From an uncultured Candidatus Saccharibacteria bacterium (lineage in GTDB: Bacteria; Patescibacteriota; Minisyncoccia; 2-02-FULL-40-12; GWA2-44-9), in NCBI GenBank assembly GCA_964366725.1, contig CAYIUL010000001.1, positions 1-51,984 of the forward strand: a stretch of DNA of 51,984 nucleotides, read 5' to 3'. The translations under genes and the position numbers were made by a program. The notes beneath the pieces are model-generated. The model saw only the letters and a list, made by a program, of their open reading frames with translations, was not told where the DNA came from and did not search any database. This document shows, one piece after another, positions 2,483-48,464 of the stretch (position 1 is the stretch's first letter; every line of letters starts with the position of its first letter).

Positions 2483-3037
2483 ATGGTTACCAAGAAAACC
2501 ACAACCAAAAAACCTGCTAAGAAAAAAGAGGTTAAGAAAGCCGCCCCTGTTCAGGCCGCGATAGAACTTGAAGAAACCGAAACGCCGGTAGTCGTGGAAG
2601 AGACGACAAACGGAAACGGGAAAGAAAAGTATTTCTCGGCCGTAGGCAGGAGAAAAGAATCCGTCGCCCGCGTCCGGCTTTTCACCAAAAAGTCATCCGA
2701 CACCACCGACGGCGAGAAAGCTCTCGTTCAGGTCAACGGCAAGGACTATACCCAATATTTCTCGGATGTTAACCTCCAGAATGTCGTAGAATCGCCTTTA
2801 AAGAAGCTCAAATCAATGAACCGCTTCAAGGCCACCGTGCTGGTCAAAGGCGGCGGCTCCAGAGGCCAGGCCGACGCCGTAAAGCACGGCATCGCCCGCG
2901 CGCTTGTATTGTTTGACCTTAACTTCCGCAAGAAGCTCAAGAAATCCGGCCTGCTCACCCGCGACCCGCGTGTCAAAGAACGACGCAAATACGGCCACAA
3001 GAAAGCAAGAAAATCCGGACAGTTCAGTAAACGTTAA
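2483..3037 (+). CDS. rpsI: 30S ribosomal protein S9 with Lys/Glu-rich N-terminal extension
   Basis: 184 aa. S9 core runs from YFSAVGRRKESVARVRLF to the C-terminal KKARKSGQFSKR. About 50 extra N-terminal residues. Confidence 0.92.
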   Translation: MVTKKTTTKKPAKKKEVKKAAPVQAAIELEETETPVVVEETTNGNGKEKYFSAVGRRKESVARVRLFTKKSSDTTDGEKALVQVNGKDYTQYFSDVNLQNVVESPLKKLKSMNRFKATVLVKGGGSRGQADAVKHGIARALVLFDLNFRKKLKKSGLLTRDPRVKERRKYGHKKARKSGQFSKR

Positions 3038-12461: not shown

Positions 12462-13532
12462 ATGCGTATCGCACTCGTTCATGACTGGCTCAACAACCTC
12501 GGCGGGGCCGAGCGTGTGCTCATAGAACTCCATAAGACATTTCCCGACGCGCCAATATATGCCCTTTTTTACAACAAAAAATTCGTCCGCGAACATCTGC
12601 CTAACGCGAACATAATTCCCAGCGGGTTGCAAAAATTCCCGTTCATTACAAAAACATATCCCATTTTACTTCCTCTGATGCCGAGCGTCGTAGAATCATT
12701 CGACATGTCCGACTACGATGTCGTTATCTCCTCTTCGGTCATATTCTCAAAAGGACTGGTATTAAAGCCAAAAACAAAACACATCTGCTATTGCTATAGT
12801 CCGACCAGGTTCCTATGGGACAGGCACACCGAATACGAACACAGTTCATGGCCTGCAAAAATCGCCCAGCACCTCCTGCGCGTCTGGGACCGGCAGGCCT
12901 CCGACAGGGTGGACCAGTTTGTGGCCATATCGGAAAACGTGAAAGACAGGATACAAAAATACTACCGCAGGGATTCCAAAATAATCTACCCTCCGGTATC
13001 TCTAACGACACGGGGTGTCGTTAGCCCCAAAACTGTGGATAAGTCGGGATACTATTTGATAGTGAGCCGCTTATTTCCTTATAAAAATATAGACATCGCG
13101 ATAGAAGCATTCAATAAGCTTGGATACGAGCTGGTGATAGTGGGGGACGGGCCGGATATGGTTCGTTTGAAAAAGATGGCCGGAAAGAATATCAAACTTG
13201 TCGGATATAAGACCGACAAAGAGGTGGCCGAGTATTACAGGAATTGCAAAGCGTTCATAATGCCGCAGGAAGAGGACTTCGGATTGACGCCTTTGGAGGC
13301 GATGAGCTTTGGCAAGCCGGTGCTGGCCTTAAGAAAAGGCGGGGCGTTGGAAACAATAACCGAAGGCCTCCATGGGGAGTTCTTTGACGACCCGATACCG
13401 GAGGCCTTAGCCGACGGCGTCCGCCGATTGAATGAAAATTACCCCTCATACAAGCGAATGGAAATTCTCTATCAGGCCCAAAAATTCTCAAGGGACAGAT
13501 TCAAAAGAGAGATAATGGAGCTATTGGTGTAA
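12462..13532 (+). CDS. GT4-family glycosyltransferase
   Basis: 356 aa. Motifs: GGAERV, VSRLFPYKN, EEDFGLTPLEAMSFGKPV (EX7E region). Confidence 0.85.
   Translation: MRIALVHDWLNNLGGAERVLIELHKTFPDAPIYALFYNKKFVREHLPNANIIPSGLQKFPFITKTYPILLPLMPSVVESFDMSDYDVVISSSVIFSKGLVLKPKTKHICYCYSPTRFLWDRHTEYEHSSWPAKIAQHLLRVWDRQASDRVDQFVAISENVKDRIQKYYRRDSKIIYPPVSLTTRGVVSPKTVDKSGYYLIVSRLFPYKNIDIAIEAFNKLGYELVIVGDGPDMVRLKKMAGKNIKLVGYKTDKEVAEYYRNCKAFIMPQEEDFGLTPLEAMSFGKPVLALRKGGALETITEGLHGEFFDDPIPEALADGVRRLNENYPSYKRMEILYQAQKFSRDRFKREIMELLV
13002..13024. repeat. in-CDS palindrome, TAACGAC family, copy A
   Basis: CTAACGACAC-ggg-GTGTCGTTAG with 10-bp arms, translated LTTRGVVS inside the GT4 gene. Confidence 0.85.
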
Positions 13533-15575: not shown

Positions 15576-16442
15576 GTGAATATCAGTGTTGTTACCATCA
15601 ACTACAACAGTTCGGAGAACACGATAAAACTTTTGGAGTCCCTCAAAAACCAGACCGACAAAAATTTTAATGTTTTGGTCATTGATAATAACTCCGGTCC
15701 GGACCAGAAAGCAATATTAAAGAACTACCGGACAGAAGAAACTAATATCGTATTTATCGAAAACGAACATAACCTGGGTTTTTCCGGAGGCAACAATGTC
15801 GGGATCAAGAAAGCCCTTGCAGATGGCGCTGACTGGATTCTCCTGCTCAATAACGATACTTGGGTAGAAAGTGACTTTATCCATCGTCTAAAGACAAATT
15901 TAGAAGGCAAGGAGGGGATAATGGGGTTGGCCATAGACGAAGGGGGCAGAACCGTTTACGCCGGTAAAATTGAATGGCTAAAACCCACACTTATCCACAT
16001 AACGACACGGGGTGTCGTTAGTCCACAGGCATATGCTATCGGGGGGGCGATGGCGGTGCATAAGAACGTATTTGAAAAAATAGGGTTCTTGGACGAGAGA
16101 TATTTTCTTTATTTTGAGGATGCCGATTACAGCATAAGGGCCCAAAAGGCGAGCATTCCCGTGGAGTTTTTGCCTGAAGTTCAGGTCCGCCATTCTGTCT
16201 CGGCGTCAACCAAAAAACTCGGCTCGCCTCTCATTCTGCGCTACCACTACCGCAATGCTTTGTATTTCAATTTGAAACACGGGCCATGGTATATCAAACT
16301 GCTTGTCTTGCCCTGGAGCTGGTTTGTGGCTGTAAAACAGATACTTAAGCTGACAGCGGGAAGAAACGCCAAAGAGTCAGAAGCAATATTGGCCGGGGTC
16401 GTAGATTTTTATAAAAACAATTACGGAAAACTTCATGTATAA
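15576..16442 (+). CDS. GT2-family glycosyltransferase
   Basis: 288 aa, GTG start. Motifs: VVTINYNS, VIDNNS, LLNNDT, YFEDADYS. Confidence 0.85.
   Translation: MNISVVTINYNSSENTIKLLESLKNQTDKNFNVLVIDNNSGPDQKAILKNYRTEETNIVFIENEHNLGFSGGNNVGIKKALADGADWILLLNNDTWVESDFIHRLKTNLEGKEGIMGLAIDEGGRTVYAGKIEWLKPTLIHITTRGVVSPQAYAIGGAMAVHKNVFEKIGFLDERYFLYFEDADYSIRAQKASIPVEFLPEVQVRHSVSASTKKLGSPLILRYHYRNALYFNLKHGPWYIKLLVLPWSWFVAVKQILKLTAGRNAKESEAILAGVVDFYKNNYGKLHV
16000..16020. repeat. in-CDS palindrome, TAACGAC family, copy B
   Basis: TAACGACAC-ggg-GTGTCGTTA, translated ITTRGVVS inside the GT2 gene. Confidence 0.85.
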
Positions 16443-17574
16443 GATAGGCATAGAATGCGAGGAGCTGGAAAAAGGCGGTGGATGGGGAATTGGCCGCATT
16501 GTTTCAAAACTTCTTGAGGAAATTTCCCACCATCCAGAATTAGGAAAAGAGTTCCGGTTTATTTTATTTTTCAAAAACCGCATTCCTGCTCTGTCATACC
16601 TAAACGCGCCGATATTTAAAAAAAGAGTTGTGGCCCCGTTTTTCAAAGGCCGTTTATTTCCGGTTTATTATCTTTTTCTCTTGCCTCTACGTCTCTGGTT
16701 CGAACAGCCGGATCTCATGTTTTGGCCGGCCTATATGCTGCCGTTTTTTACCTTTACACGATCGCTTTCTCTTATGACCGAGGATGTTTATCATGAAGCA
16801 TTTAACGGCAAGCTCCCATTCAAATACAGATTTTTTTATATGATTTTCGGAACATACTCGGCAAAACATGCAACCAAGCTTATGGCAATATCAGAGACAT
16901 CGAAGAAAAATATGGCAAAACTTTATAAAATCGACCCGGATCGAATATTTGTAAACCATTTGGGAGTGGATTTAAAATACGATCGTATTGTAAATCAAAC
17001 CGGAAATTTACCGTATATTTTGTACATAGGTCAGGCATTCCCAAGGAGACATTTGAAAGAAACGATTTTAGCGTTTGAAAAACTCGTCACAGAACATTCC
17101 AACATTCTTGAGAATGTTGGAATGTCAGAATTAAAGTTGATTGCTATAGGGCCGGACAAGTATCCCGAGCTAATTATTGATTCGCTGGCATCAAAAGTAA
17201 ACGGGCGGCTAGGTCGAGAAGCAGTGATTCATAAAAATTACGTTGAAGATAGCGAGCTTGCCAAACTATACGCCGGAGCAAAAGCTTTGGTATATGTATC
17301 CGACAGAGAAGCATTTGGTCTGCCTCCAATGGAAGCACTCTCGTTTGGAGTTCCGCCTGTTATCGCCGATAATGAATTAGGCCGCGAACTTTTCGGGGAA
17401 TACGCATTTTACGTTAAAAATCCTGACCCGGACGGAATTGCCAACGGTATCAGCCAGGCATTAACCGATTCCAATAAAATTCAGAAAATAAAGAATTCCG
17501 GACCGGAATTCGTGAAGAAATATAATTGGAAAAATTTCACCGATAAATTCTTAGAAAATGTTAAAGACATCTAA
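16435..17574 (+). CDS. GT4-family glycosyltransferase
   Basis: 379 aa. Motifs: YILYIGQAFPRRH, SDREAFGLPPMEALSFGVP. Confidence 0.85.
   Translation: MYKIGIECEELEKGGGWGIGRIVSKLLEEISHHPELGKEFRFILFFKNRIPALSYLNAPIFKKRVVAPFFKGRLFPVYYLFLLPLRLWFEQPDLMFWPAYMLPFFTFTRSLSLMTEDVYHEAFNGKLPFKYRFFYMIFGTYSAKHATKLMAISETSKKNMAKLYKIDPDRIFVNHLGVDLKYDRIVNQTGNLPYILYIGQAFPRRHLKETILAFEKLVTEHSNILENVGMSELKLIAIGPDKYPELIIDSLASKVNGRLGREAVIHKNYVEDSELAKLYAGAKALVYVSDREAFGLPPMEALSFGVPPVIADNELGRELFGEYAFYVKNPDPDGIANGISQALTDSNKIQKIKNSGPEFVKKYNWKNFTDKFLENVKDI
17093..17126. repeat. 34-nt palindrome, copy 3, in frame inside the GT4 gene
   Basis: AACATTCCAACATTCT-TG-AGAATGTTGGAATGTc matches copy 1 at 33 of 34 positions. It encodes EHSNILENVGMS in the interdomain loop. 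Confidence 0.9.
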
Positions 17575-34593: not shown

Positions 34594-34630
34594 AGTGTAC
34601 AAATGTACAAAGGGCGCCTTTGTACACTCT
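34592..34630. repeat. REP-like hairpin, left flank of the Y1 transposase
   Basis: AGAGTGTACAAATGTACAAAGG-gcg-CCTTTGTACACTCT. Core is GTACAAAGG-gcg-CCTTTGTAC at 34605-34625. Confidence 0.8.
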
Positions 34631-34641
34631 GCTCCCCTTTT

Positions 34642-35280
34642 TCAAAAGTCACCCTTATCTAGTAATAAATCCTCCATATCTTTTTTTGATTTTATAATTT
34701 CGTAAGACGATTCGGTGAATTCTTTAAAATCTTGAATATTCTTAAATTGATTGCCAATCAAAGCTGTGTCGCAAAGATCACTTTGACTGTTTAGGTAGGC
34801 AGGATAGCTGCTCCAGATATATTCGGCCGAATTTTTTATAAGACCTGCTACTTTAGGGTTTAAATGTATATAAGCTGCAAGCCAAGTTAGATAATCATTA
34901 TCATCCACTATTATTTGCCTGAACCGATCTTGAAAAACATGGCCCACATGCTTATATTTTTTATTGGAATATTTAGAGTAGCTTGTGCAGAGTTTTAGAA
35001 TTAATTTGCTCGGCGGTATTTCATTGTTTTGTTTTATAAGCAAATGAAAATGATTCGGCATCAAACAATATGCCAAAAGAGTAAATGAGCCCGACGGAAG
35101 AGGTTGGATTCTATAATATCTGTTTTTCTCATATGTTTCGGGAAATAAATTTTGCCTTAATCGCAATAGGAAAAATTGATAGTCCTCTCTATTGATAAAG
35201 ATGTTGTTTTTGAAATTGCCCCTATTATAAATATGGTAAATCTCGCCAACTCCTGTTTGTTTATAATCTCGCGTATTCAT
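34642..35280 (-). CDS. IS200-like / REP-associated tyrosine (Y1, HUH) transposase
   Basis: 212 aa. YHIYNRGN, LAYCLMPNHFHLLIKQ (HUH), GHVFQDRF, YIHLNPKVAGL (catalytic Tyr region). Confidence 0.8.
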   Translation of the reverse strand: MNTRDYKQTGVGEIYHIYNRGNFKNNIFINREDYQFFLLRLRQNLFPETYEKNRYYRIQPLPSGSFTLLAYCLMPNHFHLLIKQNNEIPPSKLILKLCTSYSKYSNKKYKHVGHVFQDRFRQIIVDDNDYLTWLAAYIHLNPKVAGLIKNSAEYIWSSYPAYLNSQSDLCDTALIGNQFKNIQDFKEFTESSYEIIKSKKDMEDLLLDKGDF

Positions 35281-35303: not shown

Positions 35304-35336
35304 CCAACTGTGCAAAGGCGCCCTTTGTACGGTTGG
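35304..35336. repeat. REP-like hairpin, right flank of the Y1 transposase
   Basis: CCAACTGTGCAAAGG-cgc-CCTTTGTACGGTTGG. The core at 35310-35330 is the reverse complement of the left core apart from 1 mismatch. Confidence 0.8.
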
Positions 35337-35875: not shown

Positions 35876-36337
35876 GTGGAAATCACAAAACTACCTAACA
35901 AAATACTGGCTAAAAAGATGGCTGGGGTGGCCCTGGAAGATATAAAGAAAGGTTCCTACCGGAAGCTGGTTTCGGATATGAAAAAGGCGATGAGGGAGAA
36001 TGAGGGTGTGGGTCTCGCGGCAAATCAGATCGGCAAGGACTTGAGCCTTTTCGTGATAGATATCAAGACCGCTGACGCATACAAGGTACCCGAGGTATAT
36101 TTCAACCCCGAAATTACTGAGTATTCTCACGAAACTGACGCGATGGAAGAAGGCTGTTTATCCATTCCGGAATTTTACGTTCCCATCACGCGGGCAAAAA
36201 AAATAAAAATCAAAGCCGTGGACGAAAACGGCAACAAGATAAAATTCAGAGCCAGGGGTTTCTTGGCGAGGGTTCTCCAGCACGAAACCGACCATCTTAA
36301 CGGCAAGACAATAAAAGACAGGGCCAATGGGAAATAA
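35876..36337 (+). CDS. def: peptide deformylase
   Basis: 153 aa. Motifs: GVGLAANQIG, EGCLSIP, QHETDHLNG. Confidence 0.92.
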   Translation: MEITKLPNKILAKKMAGVALEDIKKGSYRKLVSDMKKAMRENEGVGLAANQIGKDLSLFVIDIKTADAYKVPEVYFNPEITEYSHETDAMEEGCLSIPEFYVPITRAKKIKIKAVDENGNKIKFRARGFLARVLQHETDHLNGKTIKDRANGK

Positions 36338-37211
36338 AATAAACATTGTATTTTTTGGAACCCCTGAATTTGCCGTGGCGCCAGTTTTAGGGGCTCTCAT
36401 CAAAAATGGCTACAACGTTTCCCGATTTCAGCCGCATTCTCTAAAGGACGAGCGGGTTTTCGAAGAATTTAAAGAATCAAACCCGGATCTTTGTATTGTG
36501 GCCGCTTACGGAAAAATACTTCCGGCACGGTATCTCGATATACCAAAATATGGATTCATAAATGTCCATCCGTCTCTGCTCCCCAAATACCGGGGCCCGT
36601 CCCCTATTCAAACCGTGATCTTGAACGGCGACCAAGAAACCGGGGTTACCCTCTTGATGGTGGATGCGAAAGTTGACCATGGCGCTATTCTGGCAAGTTC
36701 CAAATACCAAATTCCTGAAGATAAATATTTTACCGAGACGGCAAAAGAACTTTTCGAATTAGGAGCAAAGTTATTGATAGAAATTCTTCCGAAATATATT
36801 AACGGTGAGATCGAGCCGAAAGAGCAAGACCACAGCCAAGCCACATTCACAAAAATGTTCAAAAGAGAAGACGGAAAAATAAACTGGCATGACCCGGCAC
36901 AAGAAATTTATAACCGTATCCGCGCCTTGAACCCGGAACCGGGCACATGGACGACATGGCACCCTTCAACAAGCTCAGGGCAAGCAGACAAAGTTATCAA
37001 CATTTCCGATGTAACGACCTTCAAGGTCGTTAGTCCACAGGGTGGAGATTTAGTGCCGGGAACAGTTAAAAAAGTTGACAATAAGGTTGTCGTGGCCACC
37101 TCTTCGGGTTATCTTGAACTCATATCCATCCAGCTTGAGGGCGGGAAAAAAATGGATGCCAAAAGTTTTATCAATGGCCATCCTAACTTCCTGAACTCGC
37201 AGCTGGAATAG
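36327..37211 (+). CDS. fmt: methionyl-tRNA formyltransferase (N-terminal loop deleted)
   Basis: 294 aa. Motifs: IVFFGTPEFA, INVHPSLLPKYRGPSPIQ, DAKVDHG. About 30 aa are missing where the [10 protein letters not shown] loop is expected. Confidence 0.88.
   Translation: MGNKINIVFFGTPEFAVAPVLGALIKNGYNVSRFQPHSLKDERVFEEFKESNPDLCIVAAYGKILPARYLDIPKYGFINVHPSLLPKYRGPSPIQTVILNGDQETGVTLLMVDAKVDHGAILASSKYQIPEDKYFTETAKELFELGAKLLIEILPKYINGEIEPKEQDHSQATFTKMFKREDGKINWHDPAQEIYNRIRALNPEPGTWTTWHPSTSSGQADKVINISDVTTFKVVSPQGGDLVPGTVKKVDNKVVVATSSGYLELISIQLEGGKKMDAKSFINGHPNFLNSQLE
37012..37032. repeat. in-CDS palindrome, TAACGAC family, copy C (variant)
   Basis: TAACGACC-ttcaa-GGTCGTTA, translated VTTFKVVS in fmt. 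The 3' flank GTCGTTAGTCCACAGG is identical to copy B. Confidence 0.7.
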
Positions 37212-46653: not shown

Positions 46654-47145
46654 TTATTTTATTATTTTTACTCTTGCCGGACGGATAACCTTGCCGTGCA
46701 TCGTGTATCCCGCCCGTACTTCTTCTGTTTTATCACCGCTTTCTCCTTCCACCGCTTCCCCCGACGCTTCGGTCGGGGCCCCGACTTCTGACGTCGGGGA
46801 TGACTCTATTGCTTCATGAAGATTTGGGTCGAATGCGCCTTCTGTGCTTATCCTTTCGATGTTGTGTTTTTTCAAGAACTCTTCGAATTTCTTAACCACC
46901 TGGTCCAGCCCCGGATTTCCTATTTCTTTTGACGCTTTTTCCAAATCGTCCACTAATTCGATTACCTCCAGCACGACCCTCTCATTGGCGAACTTGGCGA
47001 ATTCCGACAACCTCTTCACTTCATCTTTCTTATAATTTATGAAATCAGCCCTCTCCCTCTTCCAGTTATCCAGGTATTCCTGGGCCTGGACTTTCGCTTT
47101 TTCCAATTCGGTTTCGATGTTCTTGTCTTCTTTTTGTTCGTCCAT
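46654..47145 (-). CDS. grpE: nucleotide exchange factor GrpE (with C-terminal insertion)
   Basis: 163 aa. Motifs: RERADFINYKKD, FDPNLHEAIE, GYTMHGKVIRPARVKI. Confidence 0.92.
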   Translation of the reverse strand: MDEQKEDKNIETELEKAKVQAQEYLDNWKRERADFINYKKDEVKRLSEFAKFANERVVLEVIELVDDLEKASKEIGNPGLDQVVKKFEEFLKKHNIERISTEGAFDPNLHEAIESSPTSEVGAPTEASGEAVEGESGDKTEEVRAGYTMHGKVIRPARVKIIK

Positions 47146-47896: not shown

Positions 47897-47934
47897 GTGT
47901 TCTATAAATATCTAATATATCCAATTACACCTAT

Positions 47935-47962
47935 AGTATATTCCCCATTAGCACTCTGTCAA
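47935..47962 (-). promoter_or_regulatory. hrcA promoter overlapped by CIRCE
   Basis: On the minus strand: TTGACA (inside the CIRCE centre), 16 nt, TATACT. Confidence 0.65.
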
Positions 47963-47980
47963 GAGAGTGCTAATGGGGAA
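47941..47980. promoter_or_regulatory. CIRCE operator (HrcA binding site)
   Basis: TTCCCCATTAGCACTCT-gtcaag-AGAGTGCTAATGGGGAA. It contains TTAGCACTC-N8-GAGTGCTAA; the consensus spacer is N9. Confidence 0.85.
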
Positions 47981-48051
47981 TAAAGACGAATAAAAAAGTC
48001 CAATCTTAAGAACTTCGCATATCCATTAGGAAAAATTTTGCGTTATCCACA

Positions 48052-48079
48052 TTGACTAAATTTGTTTTGGATATAAAAT
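48052..48079 (+). promoter_or_regulatory. sigma70-like promoter for the downstream ncRNA candidate
   Basis: TTGACT (48052-48057), 16 nt, TAAAAT (48074-48079). Confidence 0.5.
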
Positions 48080-48085
48080 ATCTCT

Positions 48086-48409
48086 GTGGCTCTGATAATG
48101 GAGCCCTAAAATCTATATGTTCATTCTTATAGAAAAACTTAGGGCTCCGCTCTCTGGAGTAAGTGAGCGGTAAGAAACGTGATTACTGAAACTAAGCGTG
48201 AATTGTCGTGAATGAACCAAGACAATTAGCGGAGCCCGGCCTGCGCAAGTAGGGTCAGAGGATAGACAGTGTTGAGGGGGATGAATTAGTAACGGAGTAA
48301 TGACTCGATTACTAAAGTGTCCGGGCGTTTCAGTGCCTGGAAGAAAGTCCTCTCTGGAGTAAGTTTATCCTTGGGAAGGGACCGGATTCATTATCCGGTC
48401 TTTTCTTTT
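48086..48409 (+). ncRNA. candidate structured ncRNA or leader of unknown class (~320 nt) upstream of the RM pair
   Basis: 570-nt gene-free gap. 10-bp hairpin 48100-09/48139-48. GCAA-tetraloop hairpin 48240-53. Competing pairings among GGAGCCC, GGGCTCCGC and GCGGAGCCC. Strong terminator at the 3' end. No ORF. Confidence 0.5.
48380..48409 (+). terminator. intrinsic terminator
   Basis: GACCGGAT-tcatt-ATCCGGTC followed by TTTTCTTTT. Confidence 0.75.
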
Positions 48410-48464
48410 AAGTCCGACTGCACTTGGAATAAATATATAAAAACTATAAACTATATATGACACT

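Follow-up and report, generated by a model that had tools for sequence, protein, structure and literature searches.

A probable REP-like hairpin repeat, associated with a Y1 transposase gene, is translated within three unrelated genes of a Candidate Phyla Radiation bacterium

How does the same palindrome come to stand, in the same reading frame, inside three unrelated genes of one bacterium? This question is raised by a 52-kb stretch of DNA (contig CAYIUL010000001.1; the whole stretch is hereafter called the window), in which palindromes with the outer sequence TAACGAC...GTCGTTA lie at 13002–13024 (CTAACGACACgggGTGTCGTTAG, copy A, translated LTTRGVVS), 16000–16020 (TAACGACACgggGTGTCGTTA, copy B, ITTRGVVS), and 37012–37032 (TAACGACCTtcaAGGTCGTTA, copy C, VTTFKVVS). 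The respective hosts, all on the plus strand and all with an intact open reading frame (ORF), encode a GT4-family glycosyltransferase of 356 aa (12462–13532; Pfam Glycos_transf_1 / Glyco_transf_4), a GT2-family glycosyltransferase of 288 aa (15576–16442; Glycos_transf_2), and methionyl-tRNA formyltransferase (fmt; 294 aa; 36327–37211; Formyl_trans_N + Formyl_trans_C). Direct re-reading of the window returned the three copies with the positions and translations given in the original prediction, an earlier account made from the DNA letters alone. We consider it likely that they are copies of an element resembling the repetitive extragenic palindromic (REP) sequences, residing in a Candidatus Yanofskybacteria genome, and that a Y1 transposase resembling the REP-associated tyrosine transposases (RAYT) seeds and renews such solo copies.

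The pattern TAACGAC-N(1-12)-GTCGTTA matches the window three times, exactly at copies A–C and always with seven inner nucleotides, and has no match in 100 dinucleotide-preserving shuffles of the window; folded as single-stranded DNA, the copies have z scores from −3.3 to −3.8 relative to shuffles. When viral contigs were scanned as a control for this outer pattern, 57 single-copy matches appeared, of which hardly any showed pairing of the inner 7 nt; the fully paired stems of copies A–C are thus unlike chance matches. The shuffles and this control together rule out a chance origin. An Rfam scan of the whole window gave no match at the gathering score, and a known RNA family was on that ground rejected as the identity of the hairpins.

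What is repeated is more than the palindrome. The original prediction had taken the 21-nt palindrome as the repeat, and the palindrome does recur, but the full unit is directional and about 40–50 nt long: TTATC(C/A)ACA, 0 or 9–10 nt, a hairpin TAACGAC-N7-GTCGTTA with a 9–10-bp stem, and then GTCCACAGG, with conserved flanks on both sides (TTATCCACA ... hairpin ... GTCCACAGG). After the copies are oriented, the flank consensus is (C)TGTGGAy / hairpin / 0 or 9–10 nt / TGTGGATAAc, or, on the other strand, TTATCCACA - spacer - hairpin - GTCCACAG; the bases beside the stem are thus (C)TGTGGAy on one side and the spacer or TGTGGATAA on the other, and copies A, B, and C all match it. Copy A, as a REP-like unit, occupies 13003–13042 on the minus strand, antisense to the GT4 gene, and consists of the hairpin (13003–13023; the stem is 10 bp if 13002 and 13024 are counted), a 10-nt spacer, and a perfect TGTGGATAA at 13034–13042; the region is translated LTTRGVVSPKTVDK. 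Read on the minus strand it is CTTATCCACAGTTTTGGGGC + hairpin, the layout of the copy that follows the transposase gene in the related contigs described below. Copy B (15991–16029, plus strand, within the GT2 gene) has a perfect TTATCCACA at 15991–15999, the hairpin directly after it at 16000–16020, and the tail GTCCACAGG at 16021–16029; it reads CTTATCCACA + hairpin + GTCCACAGG and is translated LIHITTRGVVSPQ. Copy C (36994–37041, plus strand, within fmt) begins with a box-like TTATCAACA at 36994–37002, with one mismatch, followed by a 9-nt spacer, the hairpin at 37012–37032, and the tail GTCCACAGG at 37033–37041, reading GTTATCAACATTTCCGATG + hairpin + GTCCACAGG with the translation VINISDVTTFKVVSPQ. 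The 3′ flank that had been noticed earlier as common to copies B and C (GTCGTTAGTCCACAGG) was confirmed and turns out to be part of the repeat unit. Relative to the host gene, copy A is oriented oppositely to copies B and C. Copies A and B have an identical hairpin, including the GGG loop on the plus strand, yet flanks in opposite orientation, so that one of these two has its hairpin flipped relative to the flanks; in the related loci L142 and L064, the GT4 copy and the GT2 copy have complementary loops (g / c), as inversion of a whole unit predicts.

The most telling occurrence of the unit is around a transposase gene. In at least nine related groundwater contigs (L206, L160, L257, L168, L220, L162, L190, L201, and L191), two units inverted relative to each other and 722–727 nt apart bracket a gene for a protein of 222 aa; in L209 and L179, the upstream unit is present. 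The upstream unit is TGTGGATAAC-CTGTTGAC-hairpin, its hairpin ending 10 nt before the ATG, and the downstream unit is GTTATCCACA-gTTTTnnnn-hairpin-GTCCACAaG, its hairpin preceded by GTTATCCACAgTTTTnnnn. Each contig has one such gene with identical inverted hairpins on both sides, as seen within contigs only, and the more distant transposase genes (L174, L184, L192, L240) have hairpin flanks with no box. Such bracketing of a Y1 gene by two inverted hairpin units is the hallmark of REP sequences with their RAYT. A recurrent "host peptide" of the repeat, VDNLLTND..CRYI..MEIY, is the 5′ leader plus the start of this 222-aa protein. The protein is an IS200-like Y1 (HUH) transposase: it scores 32.4 bits with Pfam Y1_Tnp (PF01797; gathering score 23), its sole NCBIfam hit is REP_Tyr_transpos (NF047646; 41 bits, L206 type), and H78, H80, and Y138-I-H-x-N-P (the HxH and YIHxNP motifs) are invariant in 39 transposase sequences. 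An AlphaFold model of it (pLDDT, a per-residue confidence measure, 74) matches at E<0.001 only Y1 transposases, namely ISDra2, IS608, the E. coli RAYT (4er8), and IS200; a search of the PDB by sequence gave a weak ISDra2 match (E = 0.31). The family has 3954 relatives at E<=1e-10; among the best 120 of these, the named organisms are Yanofskybacteria or Patescibacteria, and the annotations of the named relatives go no further than "transposase" or "hypothetical protein". Public calls of the transposase gene (P0241, P0242, P0249, and others) are often of 234–258 aa, not 222 aa; the upstream repeat is open in the phase xxT AAC GAC, and gene callers therefore extend the transposase ORF through it.

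Two of these contigs may come from the same genome as the window. L201 (= L264) and L190 (= L265) belong to the assemblies ERZ1292629 and ERZ1292632, which also contain the window's GT4 contig; their coverage is 4 and 3, that of the GT4 contig is 5, and their hairpin upstream of the transposase gene (TAACGACACGGGGTGTCGTTA) is identical to that of copies A and B. From the shared samples, the similar coverage, and the identical hairpin, we infer that the window's genome carries the cognate transposase.

Copies of the hairpin are widespread in related sequences. A metagenome scan, which selected six inner-stem variants and whose figures hold, here and below, among the matches listed, gave at least 151 hairpin copies in at least 118 metagenome stretches, the densest being L206 with 5 in 14 kb. 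Open frames of at least 150 aa contain 84 of the 151; 16 of these 84 fall in the transposase cluster, mostly as 5′ leaders of the gene, and the other 68 (~45% of all copies) lie in long ORFs outside it. A further 49 copies are in open frames of less than 80 aa and are probably intergenic. The host proteins form at least 26 clusters, i.e., the transposase cluster and 25 others, of which Pfam names Map, MiaA, GT2, UvrA, PriA, Tgt, DnaG, MetG, and MnmA; flanking peptides, some of them common to the window genes, and inspection by eye add Fmt, GT4, large surface proteins, and membrane/TPR proteins.

The reading frame follows from the stop codons within the palindrome. Copies A–C are all read in the phase xTA ACG AC. 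... GTC GTT AGx, and, since G comes next in each case, a TAA or TAG closes both other forward frames, leaving one frame open. The shared frame accordingly follows from selection, as had been proposed, and the accompanying statement that the frame used is the only open one is correct for these three copies; it does not hold in general, as the phase xxT AAC GAC occurs in long ORFs elsewhere. Copies followed by T are read there as xxT AAC GAC ... CGT TAT (ND..RY), as in the second GT2 copy of L142 (ACT AAC GAC CTT CAA GGT CGT TAT), which is open in this phase because T follows the palindrome. Among the 84 copies in long ORFs, 53 use the TTxxVV phase and 31 the NDxx.RY phase, the latter including the transposase-cluster copies, and the phase starting with TAA is never used.

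In all three window genes, alignment of orthologues places the encoded peptide in a variable region, as had been anticipated for the two glycosyltransferases. Copy A lies in the hypervariable linker joining the two Rossmann-like domains of GT4, IIYPP ... YYLIVSRL (120 orthologues); copy B in a variable loop of GT2, from WLKPTLIH to YAIGGA; and copy C in a loop of the Fmt C-terminal domain. The window's exact GT4 protein also occurs on groundwater contigs from Hainich (well H43, 0.1 µm filter); the named organisms nearest to this protein are Candidatus Yanofskybacteria (Candidate Phyla Radiation, CPR / Patescibacteria), its best match among GTDB species representatives is 82%, and the closest readable relative, L142 (GCA_016181045.1), is syntenic with a GT4 88% identical. 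Many GT4 orthologues at 74–89% identity have xTTxxVVx with a varying middle (TTSDVV, TTLKVV, TTLNVV, TTRGVV), and in their DNA the outer stem is constant while the inner stems differ yet stay complementary: ACC TTG AAG GTC (L142), ACA CTG AAT GTC (L143), and ACA TTG AAT GTC (L064). In L063, the GT4 site reads TTA CCG ACA TCG CAA GTC GGT AA, the outer stem being changed on both sides. The loop WLKPTLxH-YAIGGA of GT2 orthologues behaves like the GT4 site, the palindrome being kept and the peptide varying, and dozens of Fmt orthologues have TTFNVV, TTSDVV, TTLNVV, TTLKVV, TTRGVV, or PTCDVG, then SPQ, at the same position. The hairpin is thus borne at the GT4, GT2, and fmt sites across many Yanofskybacteria, with the palindrome conserved and the amino acids not, which is the opposite of TTRGVVS being conserved by non-palindromic codons. 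The three sites are old, being occupied in numerous species with unchanged orientation and similar spacers. Many orthologues of GT4, GT2, and Fmt are without the hairpin.

Some further features of these host proteins were noted. From the N-terminal domain of the window's Fmt, about 31 residues (the ...VTQPDKPxGR...PVK... segment) are absent at residues ~31–35, a deletion common to about 45 of the 120 closest orthologues, the others being full or partly shortened. The GT4 linkers of distant orthologues (L118, L113, L130, L108, L074, L082) have among them unrelated strong hairpins or low-complexity strings: L118 has a GC-rich hairpin with a stem spanning ~34 nt (−35 kcal/mol), L113 and L130 have a ~100-nt hairpin (−39 and −56 kcal/mol), some orthologues have NFQF... 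or IKYQ... low-complexity strings, and the short ELPEG form of the linker is GAATTGCCnnnnGGCA(A/G)TTC. Palindromic repeats of many sorts seem to accumulate in the GT4 linker. In the GT2 loop of L062 (5904–5987), there is a perfect palindrome with 19-bp arms (ATGACATCGTAAGTCATAA|TTATGACTTACGATGTCAT) made of two inverted ATGAC-N7-GTCAT units, which resembles a doublet formed by a sister variant at the GT2 site.

Copies within one genome resemble each other. Among the sampled loci, the inner variant is shared by 66% of within-locus pairs vs 12% of between-locus pairs. The inner variant of L142 is CCTTgAAGG at GT4 and, in two GT2 copies, CCTTcAAGG; in L064 it is ACATTgAATGT and ACATTcAATGT, and L063 has the TACCGAC...GTCGGTA form at both its GT4 and GT2 sites. 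Each genome thus has mostly one inner-stem variant at all its sites, meaning that the copies are homogenised within the genome, which may be effected by repeated transposase-mediated replacement or by gene conversion. The GT2 genes of L142 and of L233/L247 contain inverted doublets, the window copies and most others being singlets. The tail at the GT2 site is of the fmt type in the window and L065 and of the GT4 type (AAATCTGTGGATAA) in L063, L064, L066, and L142, an alternation that looks like exchange of flanks between copies.

Y1 (HUH) transposases bind single-stranded DNA hairpins, cut beside them, and rejoin the strand; IS608, ISDra2, and the E. coli RAYT are known to act in this way on single-stranded DNA hairpins. 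No agent had been named for the origin of the copies in the original prediction, and the transposase association described here points to a RAYT-like Y1 transposase. By analogy, activity of this enzyme most likely seeded the solo copies and renews them, so that it would move or convert them, and the hairpin itself would be without a function for the host. A copy arriving in coding DNA would survive if its phase is open (always for xTA ACG.., and for xxT AAC.. only if T or C comes next), if the downstream frame is kept, and if the 7–16 encoded residues fall in a tolerant loop or linker; it would then be translated as part of the protein. Such a filter of phase, frame, and tolerant loop would explain the shared frame and the loop positions of the surviving copies, and repeated replacement by the transposase, or gene conversion, would account for their homogenisation within a genome.

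Several observations weigh against this explanation. In the GT2, fmt, and PriA loops, any net lengthening is slight or nil, and movement into these particular sites is for that reason deduced rather than seen: the GT2 loop of the window has 11 residues between H and Y, equalling hairpin-less orthologues such as IHKPERIGPDT (L085), the Fmt loop is as long as that of hairpin-less orthologues, and the PriA loops of hairpin-bearing and hairpin-less proteins match in length. Deletion of 27 nt from the GT2 gene would leave a 2-aa loop, and orthologues have 9–12 aa. A clean net insertion at GT2, Fmt, or PriA was therefore rejected, and of the insertion supposed earlier, there remains that one repeated element stands in unrelated genes. 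No empty site with clean boundaries was found, and no target duplication was found around copies A–C; the TCCACA repeat around copy B, a candidate for such a duplication, was rejected because it belongs to the element consensus and is present at the transposase flanks as well. The exact outer stem occurs only three times in 1.34 Mb around GT4 orthologues of 80 related species, always at GT4 or GT2 sites; the family is hence low-copy in many genomes and cannot be a high-copy repeat in all relatives. The flank consensus has no GTAG or CGTC tetranucleotide head beside the stem, and membership of the GTAG- or CGTC-REPs was rejected on this account. With NF047646, the equivalog cut-off of 80 bits is reached neither by the L206-type protein (41 bits) nor by a RAYT-like gene product of the window (50.5 bits). 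Finally, the cognate transposase gene is not in the window, the placing of L201 in the window's genome is not proven, and the RAYT-like gene that does lie in the window has another palindrome, GTACAAAGGgcgCCTTTGTAC, on either side.

In another explanation, the copies are relics of an ancient repeat, now immobile, that are kept alike by ectopic gene conversion or hairpin-started recombination among a few fixed sites, with no transposase acting today. It would account for the same sites, orientation, and spacers being occupied across species, for the low copy number in the unbiased flanks, for variants being shared within a genome, and for the fmt-type or GT4-type tail at the GT2 site, which is like flank exchange between copies. 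We nevertheless regard it as unlikely, because solo copies abound in other genomes, both intergenically and within over 20 unrelated genes, because an intact, conserved transposase gene is still bracketed by perfect copies with the variant of the solo copies, and because 21–50 nt of homology is short for efficient RecA-type conversion. That pairing is kept through two-sided changes (ACC TTG AAG GTC, ACA TTG AAT GTC, CCG ACA ... GTC GGT) might instead suggest structures selected by the host, i.e., mRNA hairpins halting ribosomes at domain boundaries or controlling decay, or sites of a palindrome-binding protein, maintained by selection and not by selfish spread. Copy A lies exactly in the GT4 inter-domain linker, where distant orthologues have unrelated strong hairpins, and the window as a whole has 42 perfect hairpins, compared with 9–20 in triplet shuffles. 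However, a host regulatory motif would be expected neither to be tightly linked to a transposase gene nor to recur intergenically and in unrelated genes, in both orientations relative to the gene and in two frames, as an identical 21–30-nt sequence with directional flanks; many orthologues do without the hairpin, and no Rfam family matches it, which together render host selection very improbable.

The head of the unit deserves separate consideration, since TTATCCACA is the canonical DnaA-box 9-mer. A perfect TTATCCACA lies within 30 nt of 54 of the 125 unique copies listed (43%; 1.2% for random 81-mers from the same loci), with preferred box–hairpin gaps of 0–1 or 9–10 nt, and of the 20 perfect boxes in the unbiased 1.34 Mb of GT4-orthologue flanks together with the window, 10 are no more than 14 nt from a hairpin (random positions, 1.65%). 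The window contains three perfect boxes, with 0.32 expected, and two of them are in copies A and B. One might thus regard the units as DnaA-binding modules, each a DnaA box with an extrudable hairpin, that serve replication control or DnaA titration, the link to the transposase being secondary. Against such modules, for which we see hardly any likelihood, the boxes are placed in coding loops over many genes, unclustered and not near dnaA; the box of copy C is mismatched, and 49 of the 125 copies are without a box-like hexamer in their flanks; the distant transposase genes are hairpin-flanked without a box; and the box was judged by the canonical consensus, which may not be that of this lineage. 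A replication origin or DnaA-box cluster was likewise rejected for the window, as the boxes are single, at three places in 52 kb, inside the GT4 and GT2 coding loops, and without dnaA context. In GT2 and fmt, the box of copy B and the box-like 9-mer of copy C overlap codons conserved in all orthologues (PTLIH and KVINI, respectively), which suggests a preference for box-like targets or integration by microhomology. Within the RAYT-like explanation, we may speculate, as a rather doubtful extension, that the head is a real DnaA box, which would recruit the initiator (e.g., for duplex opening, letting the hairpin form and the Y1 enzyme act at replication) or would scatter DnaA-titrating sites in coding DNA, while the variants rewrite the surface loops of dozens of housekeeping proteins in step genome-wide. 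The DnaA-box-like head offers a testable link between transposition and replication. The third perfect TTATCCACA (48043–48051) has no adjacent hairpin and lies in an intergenic region of ~570 nt (47897–48464), which contains a repeated CTCTCTGGAGTAAGT (~48153 and ~48352) and several stems; within it, Rfam gave nothing significant and ARAGORN no tRNA or tmRNA, and the region may encode an undescribed RNA.

The TAACGAC family is worth comparing with the known systems of small palindromic repeats. It works like a REP–RAYT system: as in the REP/REPIN–RAYT systems of E. coli (4er8) and Pseudomonas, there is a short dispersed palindrome, a Y1 HUH gene bracketed by two inverted copies, conserved unpaired bases beside the stem, genome-specific variants, and occasional inverted doublets (the GT2 genes of L142 and L233). 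It departs from those systems in its head, which is TGTGGAy / TTATCCACA and not GTAG; in its protein of 222 aa, which continues ~80 residues past the catalytic Tyr in a clade-specific C-terminal extension and scores below the NCBIfam RayT cut-off; in its location, ~45% of the sampled copies and all three window copies being intragenic, whereas classical REPs are almost all extragenic; and in its host, a CPR bacterium. A literature search found no paper combining RAYT or REPIN with Patescibacteria. The IS200/IS605 elements (IS608, ISDra2, IS200) are the best structural match and share subterminal hairpins recognised as single-stranded DNA; conserved bases at a fixed distance from the hairpin foot are the cleavage or target sites there, which is the likely chemistry here too. 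In contrast, those elements move as 0.7–2-kb units with different left and right hairpins, whereas here two identical hairpins flank the gene in inverted orientation, and it is the short solo unit that abounds. The outside end of IS50/Tn5 contains a DnaA box and is likewise a mobile-element end with that sequence, but this is a DDE transposon acting on double-stranded DNA. The cyanobacterial small dispersed repeats (SDR), palindromes of 21–27 nt that were reportedly found by Elhai et al. in 2008 also inside genes left unbroken, are likewise tiny and intragenic, but unrelated in sequence and lineage; we know of no transposase for them.

Closest in their effect on proteins are the palindromic elements of Rickettsia. 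RPE-1, said to have been described by Ogata et al. in 2000 as in-frame palindromic selfish DNA in housekeeping genes of a small genome, is 100–150 bp long, translated, tolerated at surface or loop positions, and without an associated transposase. The family described here is similarly in-frame, translated, and loop-tolerated palindromic DNA in a small genome, but its unit is 40–50 nt long, unrelated in sequence, without an Rfam relation, and transposase-linked. RPE-1 is mentioned in PMC1779305 and PMC3733652, and the latter (Di Nocera et al. 2013) documents intragenic, translated GTAG- or CGTC-tagged REPs, including Rickettsia RPE-4 and RPE-6, that lie wholly within ORFs, their hosts often being replication/repair and tRNA-related genes such as uvrA and tRNA synthetases. 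The hosts found here (UvrA, PriA, DnaG, MetG, MiaA, Tgt, MnmA, Fmt) are of the same kind, as are the 8–9-bp stems starting with A/T pairs and the short loops; unlike those REPs, the present family has no GTAG/CGTC tag and belongs to another phylum, and, while CGTC REPs are without a known transposase, the TAACGAC family has one.

Intragenic REPs and the Rickettsia RPEs having been described already, the present family is set apart by its host lineage, Patescibacteria, its DnaA-box-like head, the C-terminal extension of its transposase, and the high share of its copies that are intragenic. Hairpin repeats paired with a Y1 transposase are thereby extended to the ultra-small genomes of the CPR, in which, intergenic space being scarce, a large share of the repeats persists translated in essential genes (Fmt, Map, MetRS, PriA, UvrA, DnaG). 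As a practical consequence, the strings xTTxxVVSPQ, PTSQVG, VDNL, and IHNF in CPR proteins are repeat-derived and ought to be masked before such proteins are aligned, used in phylogenies, or submitted to structure prediction.

The window's own RAYT-like gene (34642–35280, minus strand), located between priA and def-fmt, encodes an IS200-like Y1 transposase of 212 aa with the HUH motif NHFHL, YIHLNP, and a PF01797 score of 41 bits. It is a paralogue, 29.5% identical to the transposase flanked by the TAACGAC hairpin. Its flanking palindromes are TGTACAAAGGgcgCCTTTGTACA (34604–34626), directly 3′ of the gene, and the imperfect GTACAAAGGgcgCCTTTGCAC (35310–35330), 30 nt 5′ of the start codon, which pairs with 34604–34626; neither is assigned to a strand. 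No further copy of the GTACAAAGGgcgCCTTTGTAC palindrome was found among the window and the related sequences analysed. Owing to this different flanking palindrome and its lack of other copies, the gene was rejected as a candidate agent, being probably not the one that acts on copies A–C; it is probably the partner of another repeat type.

Other palindromes of the window can be mentioned briefly. Within grpE (46654–47145), two tandem GC-rich hairpins, CCCCGAC-N6/7-GTCGGGG (46759–46799, minus strand), read SSPTSEVGAPTEASGE (translated PTSEVGAPTEASG) in the same codon phase, xCG ACx, and their core CGAC...GTCG is that of the PTSQVG-type variants at the GT4, GT2, and fmt sites of other genomes; by this resemblance, their membership of the TAACGAC family is plausible, though unproven since there is no box nearby. 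A second palindrome family, (A)ACATTCCAACATTCttgaGAATGTTGGAATGT(T) with a 14–15-bp stem, is present at 2442–2475, in the gap between the ORFs 2090–2431 and 2483–3037, and at 17094–17125, in frame within a second GT4 gene (16435–17574), where it is read EHSNILENVGMS; L077 has an orthologous copy with a different loop at 12810. Upstream of hrcA-grpE-dnaK, the palindrome at 47939–47982, with a 19-bp stem and TTAGCACTC-N9-GAGTGCTAA, is presumably the CIRCE operator of HrcA.

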